In this document: positions 213-15,237 of the stretch, in pieces
Layout of the letters: the number at the start of each line of letters is the position of its first letter
Position numbering within the stretch: position 1 is the first letter of the stretch
From: a virus
Taxonomy: Duplodnaviria; Caudoviricetes
Strand: one strand, 5' to 3'
Virus record (IMG/VR): IMGVR_UViG_3300042870_001240
Length of the DNA: 64,000 nt
The notes under the pieces: model-generated
What the model saw: the letters and a program-made list of their open reading frames with translations, nothing else
Databases searched by the model: none
Told to the model about the DNA's origin: nothing
Program-made: the position numbers and the translations under genes

Positions 213-271
213 TGCGGACACTAATAATAGGAATAAATTGATAAATGTATATATTTATTAATAAAAAAGTT

Positions 272-550
272 ATGAAAAAATTCTTTAATCAATTGTTTTG
301 TGATAACAATTCAATCAACGAAAAATCTGTAGTTGGGGTTATGGCATTTATTATGATGTCTCTATTCGCTTGTGCGGATATCGTTACAGGTTTTTTAGGT
401 AAACCATTAGTTATTAACGAGTTTATCTTTAACTCATTCCTTATCTTAGTGTTAGGTTCATTTGCTATCGGTTCTGTTGACAAATTTGTCCACAAGAAAC
501 ATGGTAGTGATGATTCTGAAACACCAAGTAACGAAGAAGTTGTAAACTAA
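272..550 (+). CDS. Small two-TM membrane protein (holin-like)
   Basis: Two hydrophobic segments and a charged tail; likely start ATG 272 downstream of TATTTAT. The holin call is inference. Confidence 0.6.
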   Translation: MKKFFNQLFCDNNSINEKSVVGVMAFIMMSLFACADIVTGFLGKPLVINEFIFNSFLILVLGSFAIGSVDKFVHKKHGSDDSETPSNEEVVN

Positions 551-1718: not shown

Positions 1719-3590
1719 TTACTTATTATTCACCTCTTCAAATTCGACATCGGAACCATTAAATTCCACATCACCTGTTTGGTCATTAACCTGGTCATAC
1801 AGGTCCTGTGAAATCTTTTGGAATTTTAGATTCACCTCATCAACTAATGATTTGGATAATTCTACGTCCTTTTTACTGTGAGCCTCTTTTAATTTTTCAA
1901 GAGTTGACGTTATCTCAGACTTTTGTTCTTCGGATATTTTACCTTCCAAATCAGTTAACGATTTTTCAACGTTAAAAATTGTGCTGTCTGCGATATTAAT
2001 TGCGTCAGCATCTTCTTTTGCTTTTTTATCAGACTCAGCATTAATTTCGGCCTCCTTTTTCATTTTTTCAATCTCCTCTTTAGATAATCCTGAAGAAGAT
2101 TCAATTCTAATTGATTGTTGTTTGTTTGTTGCTTTATCCATTGCCGAAACATTTATAATACCGTTAGTATCAATATCAAAAGTAACTTCAACTTGAGGAA
2201 CACCTCTCATCGCAGGTGGTAAGCCATCTAAATGGAATCTACCAATAGTTCGGTTATCTCTAACCATACTCCTTTCTCCCTGCAAAACGTGAATTTCAAC
2301 TGACGGTTGATTATCAACTGCCGTTGAGAATACCTGTGACTTCTTAGTTGGAATCGTGGTATTTGATTCAATTAGTTTTGTGAATACTCCACCCATTGTT
2401 TCAATACCCAAAGATAATGGTGTTACGTCTAATAACAATACATCTTTTACGTCTCCCGCTAATACACCACCTTGGATTGCCGCACCAAGAGCGACCACCT
2501 CATCAGGGTTAACTCCTTTTGAAGGTTCTTTACCAAAGAACTTTTTAACCGCATCTTGTATTGCCGGGATTCTTGTTGTTCCACCAACAAGGATAACCTC
2601 ATCAATATCAGAAACCTTAAGTTTTGCATTTTTCAATGCCGTTTTACAAGGTTCAATGGTTCTTTTAATTAAGTCGGCAGAAAGTTGTTCAAACTTTGCT
2701 CTCGTTAATGTTTTTACCAAGTGTTTTGGTCCAGTTGCATCGGCACTTAAATAAGGTAAGTTGATTTCTGTCTGAGGAGATGATGATAATTCAACCTTTG
2801 CTTTTTCAGCACCTTCTCTTAACCTTTGTAATGCCATAGCGTCTTTTGAGATATCTAAACCACCATTATCGTTCTTGAATTCCTCAACCAAGAAATCAAT
2901 AATGACTCTGTCAAAGTCATCACCACCTAAATGAGTATCCCCATCGGTAGATAATACCTCAAACACCCCATTACCAAGGTCTAATATAGATACGTCATGT
3001 GTACCACCTCCACAGTCAAATACAACGATTTTCATGTCTTTTGACATCTTATCAAGACCATACGCCAACGCCGCGGCGGTAGGTTCATTGATTATACGTC
3101 TAACAATTAATCCAGCAATTTCACCAGCTTCTTTAGTCGCTTGACGTTGTGCGTCGTTAAAATACGCAGGTACGGTAATAACCGCCTCAGTAACTTCAGT
3201 CCCCAAATAATCTTCAGCGGTTTGTTTCATCTTTTGAAGAATCATTGCCGAAATTTCTTGTGGTGAATACAATCTATCTTCTATAGATACTCTTGGTGTG
3301 TTCCCGTCACCTTTAACTAATTTATACGGAACTCTACCAACCTCACCTTTACTTTCGTCAAATGTTAAACCCATAAATCGTTTGATTGAGTAAACCGTTT
3401 TTTCAGGGTTTGTTACCGACTGTCTTTTTGCAGGGTCTCCGATTTTTCTTTCACCACCATTAATGAATCCAACAATTGAAGGGGTGGTTCTTTTTCCTTC
3501 ACTGTTTGTAATAACGACAGGTTCTCGTCCTTCCATGACCGTTACGCACGAATTTGTAGTTCCTAAATCTACTCCTATTATTTTTCCCAT
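1719..3590 (-). CDS. dnaK: Hsp70 chaperone DnaK
   Basis: [50 protein letters not shown]; full length, 623 aa. Confidence 0.98.
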
Positions 3591-4949: not shown

Positions 4950-5774
4950 ATGAAAAACACAAAAATTTACAACGAACTAGTTCAGAAATTAAGAACATTC
5001 TTTTTGGATAAAGAATTTATTGAGGTTCCAACTCAATCAAGATTATCAATTTTGGCCGCGTGTGAGAATCCACATTCTGTTAAAACATTTGAGTATGGTG
5101 GCGAAATTTGGCCCCTCCCTCAAACAGGTCAAATGTGGTTAGAACATGAGTTACTTAAAAACCCTGAATGGCCAGGAGTGTTTTGTATATCAACTTCTTA
5201 CCGAGAAGAGAAAAATCCAATTCCGGGTCGACACGAAACGATTTTTCCGATGTTCGAATTTGAATCTAAAGGAACAATGATTGATTTAAAAAATTTAGAA
5301 ACAGAGTTGTTAAATTACTTAGGATTTGACGAACCTAAGTCGGTTACTTACGAAGGTATGTGTTCAAGATATGGCACACAAATTTTAGAAGACGAACACG
5401 AGAGTAAAATGTGGAAAGAAATTGGTGAAGTAGTTTCATTAGAACATTTCCCATTAAGAACTAACCCATTTTGGAATATGAAACACGGGACTGATTCAAT
5501 TTTTAATAAGATTGACGTTATATTATTTGGTCAAGAAACCATTGGTAGCGCAGAGAGAAGTTGTGATGTTGATAAAATGAGGGAGATGTTTTATACGATT
5601 GAAAATGGTGGGTATTCTGCAAAGTTGTTTGAATTATTTGGTAAAGAAAGGGTTGAAAAAGAACTTGAGGAATTTCTTTCTTACGACTTTTTTCCTAGAT
5701 TTGGAGCCGGAATTGGTCTTACAAGATTATCAAGAGCATGGGAGTTAAATTCCGTCAATTTGGAAATTATTTAA
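4950..5774 (+). CDS. Class II aaRS (Asp/Asn/Lys) catalytic-domain-only paralog, probably AsnRS-like asparagine synthetase
   Basis: FIEVPT, YREEKNP..RH..FPMFEFE, GAGIGLTRL; no N-terminal OB anticodon domain. Confidence 0.8.
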   Translation: MKNTKIYNELVQKLRTFFLDKEFIEVPTQSRLSILAACENPHSVKTFEYGGEIWPLPQTGQMWLEHELLKNPEWPGVFCISTSYREEKNPIPGRHETIFPMFEFESKGTMIDLKNLETELLNYLGFDEPKSVTYEGMCSRYGTQILEDEHESKMWKEIGEVVSLEHFPLRTNPFWNMKHGTDSIFNKIDVILFGQETIGSAERSCDVDKMREMFYTIENGGYSAKLFELFGKERVEKELEEFLSYDFFPRFGAGIGLTRLSRAWELNSVNLEII

Positions 5775-6004: not shown

Positions 6005-6430
6005 ATGAAATTAATTGGGTTACTTAAAGAAGAAACAAGTAAAAGTCGAATGATGAGACTCCTTAAAGATATGGGGTTTTCTAAGGAGGACGCTGAAGAT
6101 GAATTAGATGAAATAACCCATTATGTTAAAACCTTACCCGAAAAAATTAAATTATACAGAATTTTGGCGGTTGATAGTGAGGATAAAATTAATACTAAAG
6201 AGCTTGGGTGTCACTATTCTACAAGTAGAAAAGATTTGATTAATTCTCATACCTACGTCACAGGTTCAGGTGAAGAACATTATATCGTTACGGTAGTATC
6301 TCCTAAAAGTTTTATAGATGTTAATGAAACAATTGCAAACATAATTTTATATCCAAACGAACAAGAGATTACTTTAAAAAATAAAGGTAGAGGTGTTGAG
6401 GTGGTTTCAGTTAAAAAAATTAAACCTTAA
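6005..6430 (+). CDS. Putative ADP-ribosyltransferase-fold protein with LLKEE leader
   Basis: LYR...YSTS...EQEITL matches the R-STS-ExE pattern; start ATG 6005 after TATTTAT. Confidence 0.6.
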   Translation: MKLIGLLKEETSKSRMMRLLKDMGFSKEDAEDELDEITHYVKTLPEKIKLYRILAVDSEDKINTKELGCHYSTSRKDLINSHTYVTGSGEEHYIVTVVSPKSFIDVNETIANIILYPNEQEITLKNKGRGVEVVSVKKIKP

Positions 6431-7107
6431 GAGTCCTTTTCTTTAGATGCGTATTTAACACCCATTATGGTTCCTATAATACTAAACGCATTTGTTAACA
6501 AAATACCAAACATATTTGACCATGTTGACCCAATGATTTGAGTATCTTTATTCATAAATAAAGAAATCATATACATAATTGTGGTAATTACACCAACAGA
6601 CATTATAACGCCTAAAGCGACCTTAACGATTGTTCCAATCAACTCGGTTTGACTTTTCTTTTGTAATAAATCTAAATCATTCATGGCGGCGTGTTTGGCG
6701 TTTTCTGCCTCAAGACGAGCCGATTCGGATTTACTCATAGCTATATGTAACTCTTCACTTATTCTTTGATTATCTTCTTTCCATGCGATTAATTCTCCGT
6801 TCTGAATTTCAATCTGTGTTTTGGTTTCCTCAACACTGGTTAAAGTTTCTTGTAACTCAACCATCATTCTTTGATTTTCTAAATTTAAATCGGATAACTC
6901 TTTATTTTGAGATTGGATTTGTTTTGTCATTTCCAATCTTCTTCGTCTAACTTCCTTGTCTTTAGAAACACAATAATCAATATACTCTTTAAATTCCTTA
7001 TCATCAGAGGTATCAATTACTTTGGCAATATTACCCTCAAGGGTAATATTTTTTGACTTATTTAAATCAATTAATTGTTGTTTACTATTTTTATCAAATA
7101 CTATCAT
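6427..7107 (-). CDS. Coiled-coil protein with two C-terminal TM helices, third gene of the kinase operon
   Basis: Long heptad region, then two hydrophobic segments; overlaps the stop of the receiver gene. Confidence 0.75.
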   Translation of the reverse strand: MIVFDKNSKQQLIDLNKSKNITLEGNIAKVIDTSDDKEFKEYIDYCVSKDKEVRRRRLEMTKQIQSQNKELSDLNLENQRMMVELQETLTSVEETKTQIEIQNGELIAWKEDNQRISEELHIAMSKSESARLEAENAKHAAMNDLDLLQKKSQTELIGTIVKVALGVIMSVGVITTIMYMISLFMNKDTQIIGSTWSNMFGILLTNAFSIIGTIMGVKYASKEKDS

Positions 7108-7535
7108 TTATATACTTTAAATGGTGCGGTTCTGTTCTTGTAACTTTCGTAATCTTGTCTAAATTCCTCCAATCTTGGTTCTATATCATCAGATTTGATA
7201 ATCCAAAACTGAGCCCCAGCCTGAATGGCTTTAGCTTGTTCTTCAGGTTCATTACTTGAAGATATAATACCGATAACTACGTTATTACCGTATTCAAAGT
7301 TAACCTTACGGATAAGTTCAATACCGTCAAAGGACGAACCGATTATATTTAAATCCACAAACACGCATTCAGGTTTACCGTTTGGGTTCTTTTGCCAATC
7401 GGAAAATAATTTAGCCGCCTCGTCAGAGCTATTTAAACTTTTTAACGACAAAGTAATGTCTAATAAGGAACAACTGTCCTCAAAAACCAAATGGAATAAG
7501 TCCTCGTCATCCACTAACAAAATTGAATCAATCAT
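7104..7535 (-). CDS. Stand-alone response regulator receiver protein (CheY-like)
   Basis: LLVDDE, FVDLN (phospho-acceptor Asp), IISSS, IIK. Confidence 0.9.
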   Translation of the reverse strand: MIDSILLVDDEDLFHLVFEDSCSLLDITLSLKSLNSSDEAAKLFSDWQKNPNGKPECVFVDLNIIGSSFDGIELIRKVNFEYGNNVVIGIISSSNEPEEQAKAIQAGAQFWIIKSDDIEPRLEEFRQDYESYKNRTAPFKVYK

Positions 7536-7548
7536 ATTTTTTCTTTTT

Positions 7549-9480
7549 TTATTTTATTTTTATTTTCATTTTAGTACCAATTTCATTCTTCTCACAAGTA
7601 ATCTTAAACTTATGTTCTTCCAAGATTGCGACACAAATATTTAACCCTAATCCAGTCCCAGATTCTTTTTGTCCTTCTTTTCTTGTATAAGGTTTGGATA
7701 AATAATTAAAATCGTCTTGAGTAATACCTCTACCGTTATCTTGTATGTAAATTGAATCCTCATCACCATATACCTTAACAAACTTTGTTTCGGAGTCGTT
7801 ATATTTTAAACCATTCCTAATTAGATTATCAACTGCGGTACAGAACAACGGTTCATTAAGTTCAATGGTTGGTAAATTATCGTCTAATATCACCTGACTT
7901 ATATAAGCCGTTGATGATAAATAATCTGCAAGAATATTTTTTACATTACATTCGGTCTTGTTTAATACCACATCTTTCTTAACTAGATTGGTAAACTCAT
8001 AAACCCCTTTATAAACTTTTTGTGAGTGTTTAAGACCTTCCTTAATCATTTTAAGTGGTGCCTCAATTTTAAGGTTAGTAATATCTTCTTGGGATAATCT
8101 CCTTTCTAATGAATTAACCCCTCTTGGTATATAAGTATTAATCCCTGAGTGCATATCATGTCTTAATATTTTAGCCGCGTGTTCTAAGTAGGTATTTTTC
8201 TTTTCAATTTCCTTCTTTTGTTCATAAGAAGTAGTAATGTCTGTAGCGATTTTCATAACACGATAAATCTTACCATCAGTACCAATAATAGGATTGTAAG
8301 TCGCCTGTAGATATACTAAAGACCCGTCTTTTTTGACTCTAACAATTTCACCTGAAAATAACTCACCATTATTTAATTTTTCCCAAAAAAGAGAATAGTC
8401 ATCGCTTTTCGAATATTCATCGTCAATAAAAATTCTGTGGTGTTTTCCGACAACCTCATCTTGTGACGAATATCCCATAGTACCTAAAAACAAGTCATTC
8501 GCAAAAATAATGTTACCTTCTAAATCAAATTCAATAACGGCATTAGATTTGTTTATCGCATTCATTCTATTCCGAATCTCCATCTCTTTTTTCTTAAGTT
8601 CCGTAACGTCTTGTCTAATTGATGAAAACCCGTCTAACTTACCATTCTTATCGAATTTTGCTTTGATGAATGTGTCAACGTAATATAATTCTCCTGATTT
8701 TCCTTTATTGGTAACAACGTCATTCCATATTTCACCATTCATTACCGTCTTATACATCTTACCCCAATAACCGTCAGGTTGTAATCCCGAATTAACAATA
8801 ATATGGTCCTTGCCTTTTACTTCGTCTAAAGACCATCCAGAAACTTCCTCAAATTTTTTATTAACGTAGGTTATTTTACCGTATTTATCAGCAACCGAAA
8901 CAATTGCGGCACTATTTAAAAAATTTTCAGTTTCTTTATTTATTCTCAATAAATCATTTCCTTCTTTAACTGAATAAGTAAAACTATAAAGAGATGATAA
9001 TAGTTGTGCAAAATCAACCTCAGAACTATCCCACTCTCTAAGTGTTAGTGACTCAATACAAATTACCCCAATGGTTTCCCCTTTATAAATAATAGGAACA
9101 TCTAACATAGATTTTACCCCAAGAGGTTTTAAATACGTTTCGGTAAAACAAGAAGTCGCTTGGTGTATTTCGGCATCATTTGCAATGATAATTGGGTTTT
9201 CTAATAACGCTAAGAAATAGGATTGGAAATCTTTTTTATAAAGTGTTATGTCTTGATACCAACTGTTTTCAGATTTAATATGTAATTGTTCACATATAAT
9301 TTCAGACTTATCTTCATTGTATAACCATATTGAACACCTATCGGCATTTATTGATTCCGTAACTTCTTTAGTTAATACTTTAGCACCTTCAGTTGTATTA
9401 CCTTCATAAAATAAAGGATTGTGTGATTGGGAGATAAGTACCTTATTTAATTTTTTAGTATAGTCAAGATGTTTTATCAT
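7549..9480 (-). CDS. Soluble GAF-PAS-PAS sensor histidine kinase
   Basis: GAF (ADRCSIW..LDVPI), two PAS domains (ITYVNKKF; IIFANDLF), H-box RHDM, N-box NLIRNGLKY, DNGRG, GTGLGL. Confidence 0.92.
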   Translation of the reverse strand: MIKHLDYTKKLNKVLISQSHNPLFYEGNTTEGAKVLTKEVTESINADRCSIWLYNEDKSEIICEQLHIKSENSWYQDITLYKKDFQSYFLALLENPIIIANDAEIHQATSCFTETYLKPLGVKSMLDVPIIYKGETIGVICIESLTLREWDSSEVDFAQLLSSLYSFTYSVKEGNDLLRINKETENFLNSAAIVSVADKYGKITYVNKKFEEVSGWSLDEVKGKDHIIVNSGLQPDGYWGKMYKTVMNGEIWNDVVTNKGKSGELYYVDTFIKAKFDKNGKLDGFSSIRQDVTELKKKEMEIRNRMNAINKSNAVIEFDLEGNIIFANDLFLGTMGYSSQDEVVGKHHRIFIDDEYSKSDDYSLFWEKLNNGELFSGEIVRVKKDGSLVYLQATYNPIIGTDGKIYRVMKIATDITTSYEQKKEIEKKNTYLEHAAKILRHDMHSGINTYIPRGVNSLERRLSQEDITNLKIEAPLKMIKEGLKHSQKVYKGVYEFTNLVKKDVVLNKTECNVKNILADYLSSTAYISQVILDDNLPTIELNEPLFCTAVDNLIRNGLKYNDSETKFVKVYGDEDSIYIQDNGRGITQDDFNYLSKPYTRKEGQKESGTGLGLNICVAILEEHKFKITCEKNEIGTKMKIKIK

Positions 9481-9544
9481 AATAATAAATATACGTTAAT
9501 ACTTTACTTTTCATTATTATAAAATATTTATAATAAAAAACATT

Positions 9545-10363
9545 ATGACTAAATTAGGTTCAAAGGGAGATGTTGTTAAACAAATCCAACAAAAATTAGG
9601 AATTACCGCTGATGGTAATTTTGGTCCTGGTACAGAAAAATCGGTTAAAGAATGGCAAACCAAAAATGGTTTAACCCCCGATGGTGTCGTAGGACCCTCA
9701 ACTTTAGAAAAAATGGGGATTACTTCTGTCATTAAAGAAGATGTAATCATTCCGTCAGGAGGTCCATTAAGTCTTGAAAAATTAAAGGGTCATATTCCTG
9801 ATTCAGTAATCGCTCAAATCCCCGAGACGGCAATTAAATTTAACATTACAAACAATTTAAGGTTGGCTCATTTCTTGGCACAATGTAGTCATGAATCAGG
9901 GGGGTTTAAAGTGTTCCAAGAGAATTTAAACTATTCTGTTGATGGTCTTAAAAAGATATTCCCAAAATATTTCCCCGGTAATCTTTCAGAATCTTACGCA
10001 AAACAACCTGAAAAAATCGCTTCAAAAGTTTATGGTGGAAGAATGGGTAATGGTGATGAATCAACTAAAGAAGGATATAAGTTTCGTGGCCGCGGTTTTA
10101 TCCAATTAACCGGAAAATCAAATTACACTAACTTTACTAAGTTTATTGGTGAAGATTGTGTGGCAAATCCTGATTTAGTTTCGACAAAATATCCGTTGGC
10201 ATCTGCGGCTTTTTTCTTTAATAATAATAATCTTTGGTCTATTTGTGATAAAGGAGCTTCAGACGATGTTGTAACACAAGTAACAAAAAGAGTTAATGGA
10301 GGTACTATAGGTTTACCTGACAGAATCAAACATTTTAAAGAGTTCTATTCTTTATTATCATAA
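9545..10363 (+). CDS. Endolysin: peptidoglycan-binding domain plus GH19 lysozyme
   Basis: ADGNFGPGT/PDGVVGP PG-binding repeats; HESGGF, RGRGFIQLTG, TKRVNGG. Confidence 0.92.
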   Translation: MTKLGSKGDVVKQIQQKLGITADGNFGPGTEKSVKEWQTKNGLTPDGVVGPSTLEKMGITSVIKEDVIIPSGGPLSLEKLKGHIPDSVIAQIPETAIKFNITNNLRLAHFLAQCSHESGGFKVFQENLNYSVDGLKKIFPKYFPGNLSESYAKQPEKIASKVYGGRMGNGDESTKEGYKFRGRGFIQLTGKSNYTNFTKFIGEDCVANPDLVSTKYPLASAAFFFNNNNLWSICDKGASDDVVTQVTKRVNGGTIGLPDRIKHFKEFYSLLS

Positions 10364-10392
10364 AAAAACCCCCTACTAAGGGGGTTTTTAAT

Positions 10393-14682: not shown

Positions 14683-15237
14683 ATGAGTATACAAAAAACA
14701 TTATTAGTTGTCTTATTTTCAATCGCTGTCATAGTTTTACTATGTTCTAACGAATTAAAAAAAGATATTATATATAAGTCTTTTGATAGGATAGATTTTG
14801 GTCATAGTAGTGACATCAACAAACCATCATCAATATTGATGTATGAAAACTTGGAGAAGTATTCTAAAGAATACAAGATTCCAAAACACATTATTTATAA
14901 TATCGCATTTTTAGAAACACGATACGAGGGGCCGTTTGATTGGGGTTACAATCCCGAAAGAACATCCCCCGTTGGTGCGGTTGGTCCAATGCAAGTTATG
15001 CCTTCGACCGCTGATTATATTTGTCATAAAAAAGTATCAGTTAAAAAATTAAAGACGGACATTAGATTTAACATTGAGACGAGTGTCAAATTATTACAAA
15101 TACTATATAAAAAATATGGGAATTGGGAAATAGTTTGTGGTTGTTATAATACGGGTCGACCGATGATTAATGATTACGCACGTTTTTGTGATAAAAATAA
15201 AAACTATCAAAAAAATTGGAAATACCTTAAGTACTAA
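14683..15237 (+). CDS. Lytic transglycosylase (SLT domain) with N-terminal hydrophobic anchor
   Basis: LETRY (catalytic Glu), GAVGPMQVMPST, YNTG. Confidence 0.85.
   Translation: MSIQKTLLVVLFSIAVIVLLCSNELKKDIIYKSFDRIDFGHSSDINKPSSILMYENLEKYSKEYKIPKHIIYNIAFLETRYEGPFDWGYNPERTSPVGAVGPMQVMPSTADYICHKKVSVKKLKTDIRFNIETSVKLLQILYKKYGNWEIVCGCYNTGRPMINDYARFCDKNKNYQKNWKYLKY

Follow-up and report, generated by a model that had tools for sequence, protein, structure and literature searches.

A large lake-water phage carries a three-gene cassette that we read, with about even confidence, as a functional two-component pathway of the phage's own, with a non-transcriptional output and signal-gated control of lysis. 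This reading draws on sequence comparison across related phages. In some of these, the sensor domains of the kinase are fused directly onto the coiled-coil/two-helix module of the membrane protein, an observation that is new here.

The cassette lies on the minus strand of the window (the whole stretch of DNA that was analysed, 64,000 nucleotides), and the coordinates of its three genes match the open reading frames exactly. The features are as follows:

7549–9480, minus strand: soluble sensor histidine kinase, 643 aa, GAF-PAS1-PAS2-DHp (His441)-HATPase_c (Pfam, HK853 alignment, motif invariance, dN/dS)
8980–9381, minus strand: GAF domain, aa 34–167 (Pfam GAF at aa 34–164, E 1e-15)
8611–8916, minus strand: PAS1, aa 189 to about 290, Aer/MmoS/NifL-like (Pfam; solved-structure matches)
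8224–8541, minus strand: PAS2, aa 314–419 (Pfam PAS_9, E 8e-20; Pfam bounds aa 314–416)
8143–8163, minus strand: H box RHDMHSG, including His441, the predicted phospho-acceptor (HK853 alignment; invariant in 41 kinase cores)
7555–7845, minus strand: HATPase_c, aa 546–642, with the N, G1 and G2 boxes (Pfam, E 4.9e-14)
7104–7535, minus strand: stand-alone receiver, 143 aa, predicted phospho-acceptor Asp61 (Pfam Response_reg, alignment A2, dN/dS)
6427–7107, minus strand: coiled-coil/two-TM membrane protein, 226 aa, putative output (alignment A1, AF2 model, family set, dN/dS)
7000–7107, minus strand: N-domain of the membrane protein, aa 1–36 (alignment A1)
6643–6999, minus strand: signalling coiled coil, aa 37–155 (alignment A1, AF2)
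6451–6642, minus strand: TM1 (aa 156–184), periplasmic loop (185–195) and TM2 (196–219) (hydrophobic helices, alignment A1)
9481–9544, between the divergent genes: 64-bp control region with a TATTTAT box in each direction (sequence, motif positions)
9545–10363, plus strand: endolysin, PG_binding_1 + GH19 (Pfam, PHROG)
245–550, plus strand: small 2-TM protein, 101 aa, charged tail, candidate holin (two hydrophobic helices, neighbourhoods in relatives)

Thirteen nucleotides separate the kinase stop from the receiver start, the receiver stop overlaps the membrane-protein start by 4 bp, and the kinase and endolysin start head-to-head across a gap of 64 bp. Within that gap, one TATTTAT box (9485–9491, minus strand) ends 4 nt ahead of the kinase ATG and the other (9525–9531, plus strand) ends 13 nt ahead of the endolysin ATG. 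Across the window, 31 of 74 TATTTAT copies end 0–20 nt before an ATG (counting only ATGs of ORFs of at least 60 aa), as compared to about 2% expected by position. The first-pass annotation had described a complete two-component module and a coiled-coil two-TM protein, in one operon behind TATTTAT and head-to-head with a GH19 endolysin; all of its ORFs, domains and boxes were located, and the description stands. The endolysin combines Pfam PG_binding_1 and Glyco_hydro_19 domains and matches the PHROG endolysin family (E 1.5e-63); a hydrophobicity scan of the protein found no signal or membrane segment. A terminator-like hairpin lies past the endolysin, at 10369–10384.

No hydrophobic segment was detected along the kinase, which is therefore predicted to be soluble. 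The initial description of a soluble GAF-PAS-PAS kinase with intact H, N, G1 and G2 boxes thus holds for this phage, but solubility does not extend to most relatives, whose kinases bear an additional N-terminal two-helix membrane anchor. Residues 423–635 align to the DHp and catalytic core of Thermotoga HK853 (phmmer, 3dge, E 7e-9), such that His441 of LRHDMHSG falls on His260, the phospho-accepting residue of SHELRTPL. Pfam HisKA had no match in the kinase at E < 0.01, and we therefore class its DHp, by sequence, as a divergent subtype. The H box, N box (DNLIRNGLKYN, 551–561), G1 box (DNGRG, 581–585) and G2 box (GTGLGLNI, 608–615) are invariant or nearly so across 41 distinct relatives; the protein has both the DHp H-box histidine and the ATP-binding boxes expected of a HisKA-type kinase.

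The closest solved structures to PAS1 are 3ewk, 8dik and 2gj3 (E 8e-23 to 3e-8); PAS2 is closest to 3ewk, with MmoS, Aer and NifL matches at E 5e-15 to 2e-7. By these best PDB matches both domains are sequence kin of the Aer/NifL/MmoS class, although the NCBIfam NifL model gave only a partial match, well under its cut-off. MmoS (3ewk), Aer (8dik) and NifL (2gj3) are FAD-binding redox sensors. What is presumably the position of the RHPD-type motif of Aer reads NSGLQP in PAS1, however, and the ligand may therefore differ. In the proposed pathway, the kinase would most likely respond to redox, energy or a small metabolite.

Pfam Response_reg matched residues 5–115 of the 143-aa receiver above its cut-off (E 4.7e-8), and no further domain was found in Pfam or NCBIfam, as expected of the receiver without an output domain described from the first. 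Residues D9, D10, D61, S92–94 and K114 are invariant in 24 receivers (alignment A2; mean column identity 91%), giving a CheY-like, REC-only protein with the acidic pocket, phospho-Asp, Ser/Thr and Lys of phospho-chemistry. In two complete relatives (G406 and G410), the cassette receiver is the sole REC and the cassette kinases are the sole HATPase_c proteins. Because the receiver is a REC domain only, its output would have to go via protein binding. Some single-domain response regulators work through contact with a partner protein, for example CheY-FliM, DivK-DivL and Spo0F. The phage receiver resembles them in architecture and residues, but its likely target differs from a motor switch, pseudokinase or phosphotransferase; it would be a new N-terminal domain, carried on a coiled coil with a hairpin of two membrane helices or, at a cellular-looking homologous locus (L091), on a second kinase.

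The membrane protein had no Pfam match. In an AlphaFold2 model (pLDDT 85.9), a continuous helix (37–184) leads into TM1, in keeping with the coiled-coil two-TM protein first proposed; the protein ends in a charged tail, KYASKEKDS, and alignment A1 shows no variation at any position of TM2 or the periplasmic loop. Its family comprises 262 representatives, with atlas clusters 96–100% viral. The genes for receiver and membrane protein abut or overlap at every locus, and the N-domain was found only beside the 143-aa receiver. Two proteins (P0248, P0267) have the N-domain joined to a different kinase core, of HisKA type, and here too the 143-aa receiver (73% identical) lies immediately before. Predicting the complex of the receiver with residues 1–110 of the membrane protein, a check named in the first-pass annotation, gave an ipSAE of 0.53 (runs 0.53, 0.63, 0.52) against 0.01 for the best of three controls. 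The runs agreed in contacts and partner pLDDT was at least 84. The score fell in the band graded 'weak support'. In calibration, 58 of 80 solved complexes scored at or above the tool's mark, as did 2 of 110 mismatches; among those that passed, only 7 of the 80 solved complexes, but both mismatches, scored no higher than 0.60.

Fused architectures in other phages point to the function of the membrane module. There, GAF, PAS1-type or PAS2-type domains of the kinase are joined straight onto the coiled-coil/two-helix module. One ORF (P0139) combines a GAF domain (56% identity to the kinase GAF) with membrane-protein residues 60–226 (57% identity). Two others (P0161, P0181) are PAS-CC-TM proteins, and PAS1 is 65% identical to the P0161 PAS; three more (P0174, L084, L085) are PAS-PAS-CC-TM proteins, to whose PAS domains PAS2 is about 48–53% identical. 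In IMG/VR, 162 stretches carry sensor-CC-TM fusions. The receiver was absent from all 80 fusion loci (80/80), and three genomes of the fusion type, each with a completeness of 91% or more, have neither REC nor HATPase_c. Because sensors are fused to the module in genomes that have no kinase or receiver, we infer that the membrane module is the output of the pathway. The suggestion that the membrane protein is the receiver's target gains comparative support from these fusions, from the abutting genes, from the restriction of the N-domain to the receiver's side and from the sole REC of the two complete relatives.

The proposed order of events is as follows: the cytoplasmic kinase would read a host-cell cue via its GAF and two flavin-sensor-type PAS domains, autophosphorylate on His441 and pass the phosphate to Asp61 of the receiver. 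The phosphorylated receiver would then dock on the small N-terminal domain of the membrane protein, and the signal would run down the long continuous helix to the conserved two-helix hairpin. Finally, the hairpin would join the lysis genes in acting at the inner membrane, either as a holin under regulation or as an antiholin-like regulator of a holin, and would thereby set the time at which the GH19 endolysin gets to the cell wall.

The link to lysis comes from gene neighbourhoods. With fusions clustered at 95% identity (n = 47) and 27 cassette clusters, an endolysin was located within 2.5 kb in 33 of the 47 fusion clusters (70%) and in 48% of the cassette clusters; some lysis-panel gene was near 39 of the 47. 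The first-pass annotation had the phage sensing host physiology to time lysis, a proposal that turned on conserved linkage to lysis genes; linkage is conserved, in the proposal's favour, but not universal (48–63% of cassette clusters, 70–83% of fusion clusters). These frequencies far exceed the few percent that we would roughly guess for an arbitrary gene of a 120–300 kb genome. Among close relatives, a large share of the linkage may reflect shared synteny and not separate events. At some loci the endolysin is upstream and divergent; in at least 20 cassette loci it begins about 10–20 nt downstream of the membrane gene, which thereby occupies the classical holin position.

An alternative, which we consider rather unlikely though it deserves weight, is a real phage signalling pathway to the membrane protein that does not serve lysis; the module might act in superinfection exclusion, in control of membrane potential or ion flux to adjust the energy of the host over the long course of a jumbo-phage infection, or in localising a phage complex, and its nearness to the endolysin would be inherited gene order. 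No Pfam or PHROG holin or antiholin matched the whole protein or its C-terminal 97 aa (only phrog_1544, of unknown function, at E 0.002), and a TM2 and loop without any variation are atypical of holins and point to a channel or a particular partner. Two TM helices, a charged tail and, in at least 20 relatives, a place directly upstream of the endolysin would suit a holin, but 226 aa with a 155-aa cytoplasmic part is unlike ordinary holins, and other candidates co-occur: Phage_holin_4_1 and homologues of the small 2-TM protein, itself without a family match, accompany the fusions, the latter within 2.5 kb in 45 of 80 loci and beside the cassette in L051. In the window, the small candidate holin is about 6 kb from the cassette. 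No lysis gene lies nearby in 37–52% of cassette clusters (10–14 of 27 have no endolysin homologue within 2.5–5 kb) and in 17–30% of fusion clusters; at least one fusion (L093) sits amid replication genes, and three distant contigs (L080–L082) showed no homologue of GH19 within 6 kb. Against mere inheritance of gene order, the neighbours comprise two unrelated endolysin families (the fusions adjoin non-homologous GH24 lysozymes) as well as holin and spanin-like genes. The order of these genes takes several forms, they share the strand of the module, and the distance is often only tens of bases. The linkage frequency and the repeated slot immediately upstream of the endolysin also count against this alternative.

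That the kinase and receiver chiefly cross-talk with host two-component proteins, as takeover or phosphate sink, with the membrane protein a mere anchor or scaffold, seems improbable. The cellular-looking locus has a close counterpart (kinase core 60% and receiver 73% identical) that feeds a second kinase and adjoins an AraC-type regulator, and compatible host partners could therefore exist. Yet a search of 401 sampled genomes from the phylum to which a Saprospira-labelled MAG (G001) belongs turned up no receiver of this type (E ≤ 1e-25), whereas that query did recover it in G004 and G005. Fusion-type phages, moreover, drop kinase and receiver but keep sensor and membrane module, so that the module rather than host cross-talk is the constant, and the N-domain and receiver always co-occur. 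The earlier idea of interference with host phosphorelays found no support in this analysis.

The gene order kinase-receiver-membrane protein is kept in all of the approximately 74 related IMG/VR lake-phage loci whose contigs extend sufficiently, as well as around P0162 and in divergent contigs with GC contents of 42, 48 and 66%. No frameshifted or truncated copies were seen in the relatives' loci. Median dN/dS was lowest for the receiver (0.06), followed by the kinase (0.09) and the membrane protein (0.19), with synonymous sites saturated (dS about 1.4); all three genes are under purifying selection. Lake metatranscriptome contigs cover portions of all three, and one spans the receiver together with the point where the membrane gene adjoins it, though RNA libraries can contain carried-over DNA. 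A second kinase, bearing either a signal peptide or a membrane anchor, is present in some relatives. We give hardly any credence to the cassette being a bacterial passenger unused by the phage, as its bacterial-type domains and cellular-looking homologue might suggest, given such selection across phages, its occurrence in contigs from 30 to 66% GC, the active reshuffling of sensor domains around a receiver that stays 81–97% identical among relatives, and the phage's own TATTTAT box upstream.

Known systems offer partial parallels to signal-gated lysis. In LytSR with LrgAB/CidAB, of staphylococci and Bacillus, a two-component system is linked to membrane proteins of holin/antiholin-like type that govern cell lysis, with sensing tied to the energetic state of the cell; LytS is a kinase that crosses the membrane several times, and LytR is a LytTR DNA-binding regulator of transcription. 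The cassette would likewise couple a two-component system to a membrane protein controlling lysis, but it is phage-encoded, contains neither a LytS-type membrane sensor nor a LytTR regulator, pairs a soluble GAF-PAS-PAS kinase with a receiver that has no LytTR or other output, and would couple protein to protein; its membrane protein has no sequence relation to LrgA or CidA. XhlA, of the PBSX lysis cassette of Bacillus subtilis (Pfam PF10779), lies beside holin and endolysin and also has a coiled coil and C-terminal membrane anchor, but with one TM and no known signalling input; the membrane protein has no sequence match to it. In T4 lysis inhibition, the antiholins RI and RIII act on the holin T (PMC11413866), and lysis inhibition is also described in ICP1 and N4 (PMC7182436, bioRxiv 10.1101/2025.11.12.688109). 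As proposed for the cassette, a signal relayed to a membrane lysis protein, not a fixed clock, sets the timing in T4; there, RI senses superinfection in the periplasm without a phosphorelay, whereas here the sensors would be cytoplasmic GAF/PAS domains acting through a His-Asp relay or direct fusion. No homology was found between the T4 lysis-inhibition proteins and the cassette.

This phage probably times the burst of its host by the host's internal state. More broadly, and only tentatively, a class of freshwater phages, probably of Bacteroidota, would gate lysis on internal redox or energy state via a previously undescribed module of coiled coil and invariant two-helix hairpin with interchangeable wirings. 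These may be one-component, with GAF or PAS domains fused to the module, or two-component, running from kinase to receiver to N-terminal adaptor domain; the second kinase of some relatives may be an extra input. If true, this would be the first phage lysis clock under His-Asp phosphorelay control.

The first-pass annotation had described a GAF-PAS-PAS histidine kinase, a receiver without an output domain and a coiled-coil protein with two transmembrane (TM) helices, lying head-to-head with an endolysin gene, and this arrangement was confirmed. The genes of the window that bear on its interpretation are as follows:

245-550, plus strand: small 2-TM protein of 101 aa with an acidic/charged tail; no family match
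1719-3590, minus strand: full-length Hsp70/DnaK
4950-5774, plus strand: class-II aminoacyl-tRNA-synthetase-like (AsnA-type) gene, matching phrog_29758 (E 5e-100)
6427-7107, minus strand: membrane protein, 226 aa; its start and the receiver stop share 4 bp
7104-7535, minus strand: receiver, 143 aa; its start lies 13 nt past the kinase stop
7549-9480, minus strand: kinase, open reading frame of 643 aa
9545-10363, plus strand: endolysin (PG_binding_1 and GH19 domains), 64 bp from the kinase start
14683-15237, plus strand: SLT lytic transglycosylase protein of 184 aa (Pfam E 2e-13) with an N-terminal membrane/signal-anchor helix

The window is AT-rich (about 30% GC), with small, tightly packed genes, and carries phage-type genes including thymidylate synthase, Hsp70 (matching phrog_22485), the endolysin and several PHROG-only families. 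The best GenBank matches of the Hsp70 and the endolysin are uncultured phages of 480-735 kb. Megablast against GenBank phages returned no cultured relative, the sole match being that of the endolysin (74%) to a 635-kb uncultured phage; tblastn with the kinase matched generic PAS domains only. DNA near-identical to the window was present in about 18 lake-water metagenome runs. The AsnA-type gene and Hsp70/DnaK flank the cassette, and this synteny is kept in many relatives. A second muralytic gene, that of the SLT protein, lies about 4 kb away from the GH19 endolysin.

The kinase has GAF, two PAS and HATPase_c domains by Pfam and no hydrophobic segment. It did not reach the Pfam HisKA threshold; its C-terminal 229 aa align full-length with Thermotoga HK853, placing His441 (in LRHDMHSG) on the phospho-accepting histidine. 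The H, N, G1 and G2 boxes, earlier called intact, are invariant or nearly so across 41 distinct relatives, some from contigs of 42-66% GC. The receiver is indeed a REC domain alone; D9, D10, D61, S92-94 and K114 are invariant among 24 relatives, with a mean column identity of 91%. The cassette supplies the only REC and the only HATPase_c domain in two CheckV-complete relatives of 304 and 169 kb, counts that describe those genomes rather than the window's own.

Scanning IMG/VR with the kinase yielded 114 relatives; 79 loci, on contigs of up to 304 kb, were retained. Thousands of kinase relatives were found in the protein database; the best 120, all from metagenomes, share 71% identity or more. 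The order kinase, receiver, membrane protein was kept in all of the approximately 74 loci that reach far enough, the last two genes abutting or overlapping. Identity to the window is highest for the receiver (81-97%), followed by the kinase (66-91%) and the membrane protein (51-83%). Median pairwise dN/dS was 0.09 for the kinase, 0.06 for the receiver, 0.19 for the membrane protein and 0.15 for the endolysin; although dS is saturated (about 1.4-1.7) and the values are thus rough, all four genes are clearly under purifying selection.

The membrane protein matched no family. Two C-terminal hydrophobic helices and an AlphaFold2 model (pLDDT 85.9) bear out the coiled-coil, two-TM description: an N-terminal domain (residues 1-36, the N-domain) is followed by an unbroken helix (37-184) running into TM1, a short loop and TM2, these last elements forming a hairpin. 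Relatives scarcely differ in the first 70 residues, the periplasmic loop and TM2 (WSNMFGILLTNAFSIIGTIMGVKY); the middle of the coiled coil is variable, with deletions. Foldseek against viral structures returned one uncharacterised homologue, the rest being long-helix noise, and an atlas search returned unnamed viral clusters only (96-100% viral). Nine matches among species-representative genomes all lie on contigs of metagenome-assembled genomes (MAGs) whose labels span nine different phyla or classes, a spread that points to mis-binned phage DNA. The receiver type was not found, at E<=1e-25, in 401 sampled genomes of the phylum of G001, a MAG labelled Saprospira; the same query does detect the receiver in two cassette-bearing MAGs. 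By these searches the membrane-protein family looks viral.

A profile search with the membrane protein found 262 relatives among 1.84 billion representative proteins, in three architectures: full-length proteins like that of the window, fusions of a sensor to the coiled coil and hairpin, and the N-domain and coiled coil joined to a HisKA core. In the second architecture, the fusion P0139 joins the kinase GAF domain (56% identity across 218 aligned positions) to the part of the membrane protein that starts at residue 60 (57% identity), and so is, literally, both ends of the cassette in one protein. Another fusion, P0161, carries PAS1 (65% identity), and P0174, L084 and L085 carry two PAS2-type domains each. 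Such fusions are common, with 162 stretches in IMG/VR. The receiver was absent from all 80 of the fusion loci. Neither a REC nor a HATPase_c domain occurs in three genomes of the fusion type, which are at least 91% complete and of which two have terminal repeats. In the third architecture (P0248, P0267, P0273 and P0274) the hairpin is replaced by the HisKA kinase core, and in both contexts with enough DNA a 143-aa receiver (73% identical) directly precedes the gene, with stop and start overlapping. One of these, L091:179-3855, encodes in order a kinase with a membrane anchor (60% identity in the core, H box unchanged), the receiver (73% identical), the N-domain joined to a HisKA core, and an AraC-type protein. 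Its neighbours (AraC-type, YceI, DUF6799 and AP_endonuc_2) make the locus look cellular; it may be a bacterial ancestor or counterpart of the cassette, in which the receiver would control a second kinase. Two other homologous loci have as neighbours PrkA/SpoVR/DUF444 (L081) and genes of no assigned family only (L082); either may be phage or cellular.

Taken together, the three architectures say that the output of the sensors would be the coiled-coil/hairpin module; that the N-domain, which accompanies the receiver, is likely its docking site; and that the cassette would wire up, as a two-component system, a device made by other phages as a single protein. The earlier proposal that the TM protein is the receiver's target thus gains from the fusions and from the co-occurrence of N-domain and receiver. 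Structure-based complex prediction for the receiver with residues 1-110 of the membrane protein scored 0.53 (runs 0.53, 0.63 and 0.52; best control 0.01), with contacts concordant between runs and partner pLDDT of at least 84; in calibration 58 of 80 solved complexes passed the mark, as did 2 of 110 mismatches, and scores of 0.60 or less came from only 7 of the 80 solved complexes plus both passing mismatches. The tool grades the predicted complex as weak support, a small gain over an already favourable prior. On the comparative evidence, a functional phage two-component pathway with the adjoining membrane protein as its output is quite probable.

The literature searched contained nothing relevant on phage-encoded two-component systems or PAS domains with holins, no phage kinase-receiver pair tied to lysis, and no PAS- or GAF-fused lysis membrane protein. 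The sole mention in a review of jumbo phages is a divergent REC unrelated to kinases (PMC7824862). The nearest known systems show partial functional likeness to the cassette without shared membership: LytSR-LrgAB/CidAB acts by transcriptional control and has other domains; T4-type lysis inhibition uses a periplasmic antiholin without a phosphorelay, whereas the cassette encodes the genes of a His-Asp relay; and single-domain receivers of the CheY/DivK type resemble the cassette receiver only. We would class the cassette as a two-component system whose output, a new membrane module, is non-transcriptional and which has a one-component twin.

The sensor end is modular. In the majority of relatives the kinase has an added N-terminal two-helix membrane anchor, followed by GAF-PAS-PAS (707 aa), PAS-PAS (about 532-541 aa) or a single PAS (423 aa); soluble kinases of the window type recur among relatives. 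An open reading frame upstream of the window kinase (9517-9750, minus strand) was considered as an anchor remnant and rejected, since nothing in its sequence resembles the anchor and it overlaps the endolysin gene. Several relatives have two added genes in the same operon, in the gap between kinase and receiver (L010:9908-11922, L068:9065-11010, L002:2423-3814): a second kinase (440-478 aa) whose N-terminus resembles a signal peptide or anchor, and a secreted coiled-coil protein of about 200 aa. These look like an extra input to the same receiver, possibly for envelope sensing. A homing-endonuclease-like gene with NUMOD3 motifs lies just upstream of the receiver in two relatives (L072:3773-4240, L073:11266-11733). 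With sensors and added genes so varied and the receiver/membrane-protein pair constant, the inputs are freely exchanged. Separately, a relative of 42% GC (L080:1980-5560) has two tandem kinases of the cassette-kinase family upstream of the receiver and membrane protein.

The best solved relatives of both PAS domains are MmoS (3ewk), Aer (8dik) and NifL (2gj3), which are FAD-binding redox sensors; the GAF domain matched only the GAF of PtsP, and marginally. A redox or energy cue is a reasonable guess. The motif TATTTAT, behind which the operon had been placed, stops 4 nt short of the kinase ATG and 13 nt short of that of the endolysin. Its raw count is not elevated (74 versus 61 ± 8), and what is telling is solely its placement relative to start codons: 31 of the 74 copies lie 0-20 nt upstream of an ORF start (>=60 aa), against about 2% expected by position, with spacings of 4-6 nt or 13-19 nt before many start codons (e.g. 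4786, 9485, 20247, 51012). The motif is thus a genuine upstream element common to the kinase operon and the endolysin, which upholds the earlier placement, and is presumably a phage-specific promoter or translation-start element. A scan for sigma-70 promoters and terminators inside the operon did no better than shuffles. In two lake metatranscriptome libraries, contigs matched parts of all three genes as well as the endolysin; one takes in the receiver and the boundary between receiver and membrane-protein genes, and another is an exact kinase match. Coverage has gaps within the kinase (8224-8651), and such contigs carry no information on strand, level or absence and may include DNA carry-over.

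For phages the timing of lysis is a central life-history trait, usually seen as a clock set by holin concentration, T4-type lysis inhibition excepted. In the window, as in many relatives, the endolysin and kinase genes point away from each other. At least 20 other loci have the membrane-protein gene in the classical slot of a holin, with the endolysin following about 10-20 nt downstream in the same orientation; further loci lack an endolysin within 8 kb. Once the loci were dereplicated at 95% identity, the endolysin was within 2.5 kb in 13 and within 5 kb in 17 of 27 cassette clusters, and within 2.5 kb in 33 of 47 fusion clusters, 39 of which had some member of the lysis panel; the panel is homology-based and gives a lower bound, and the clusters share ancestry and are not independent events. 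By our rough estimate, a random gene would lie this near in a few percent of cases (120-300-kb genome, one to three muralytic genes). Neighbours of the fusions include non-homologous GH24 lysozymes, in several gene orders. The expected linkage to lysis genes held in those clusters but is not universal, and the fusion of L093 lies clearly among replication genes.

In the locus L085 the gene order is small 2-TM protein, fusion (PAS-PAS type, 1947-3104), GH19 endolysin, Phage_holin_4_1, two spanin-like genes. In 45 of the 80 fusion loci a homologue of the small 2-TM protein directly adjoins either the fusion gene or the endolysin, and one lies beside the cassette in L051; the window copy (245-550) is a candidate class-II-type holin. 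A holin-derived origin of the hairpin gained no support from BLASTP against this protein (E 0.17, not significant). Since recognised holin candidates co-occur with it, the module may regulate a holin instead of being the only one. The single best reading is that lysis timing is under the control of the membrane output, a reading we hold tentatively, with the balance near level.

The family would define a new putative receiver-binding adaptor domain, recurring on a kinase in a cellular-looking locus. It is a naturally modular sensor-to-membrane switch, in which one output is driven by a GAF/PAS fusion or by a kinase and receiver; because the drivers are interchangeable, the question is tractable by module swaps. 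If a sensor pathway does lead to a membrane lysis component, large environmental phages would actively read host physiology before burst, with bearing on burst size, on estimates of viral mortality in lakes, and on how jumbo phages handle long infections.
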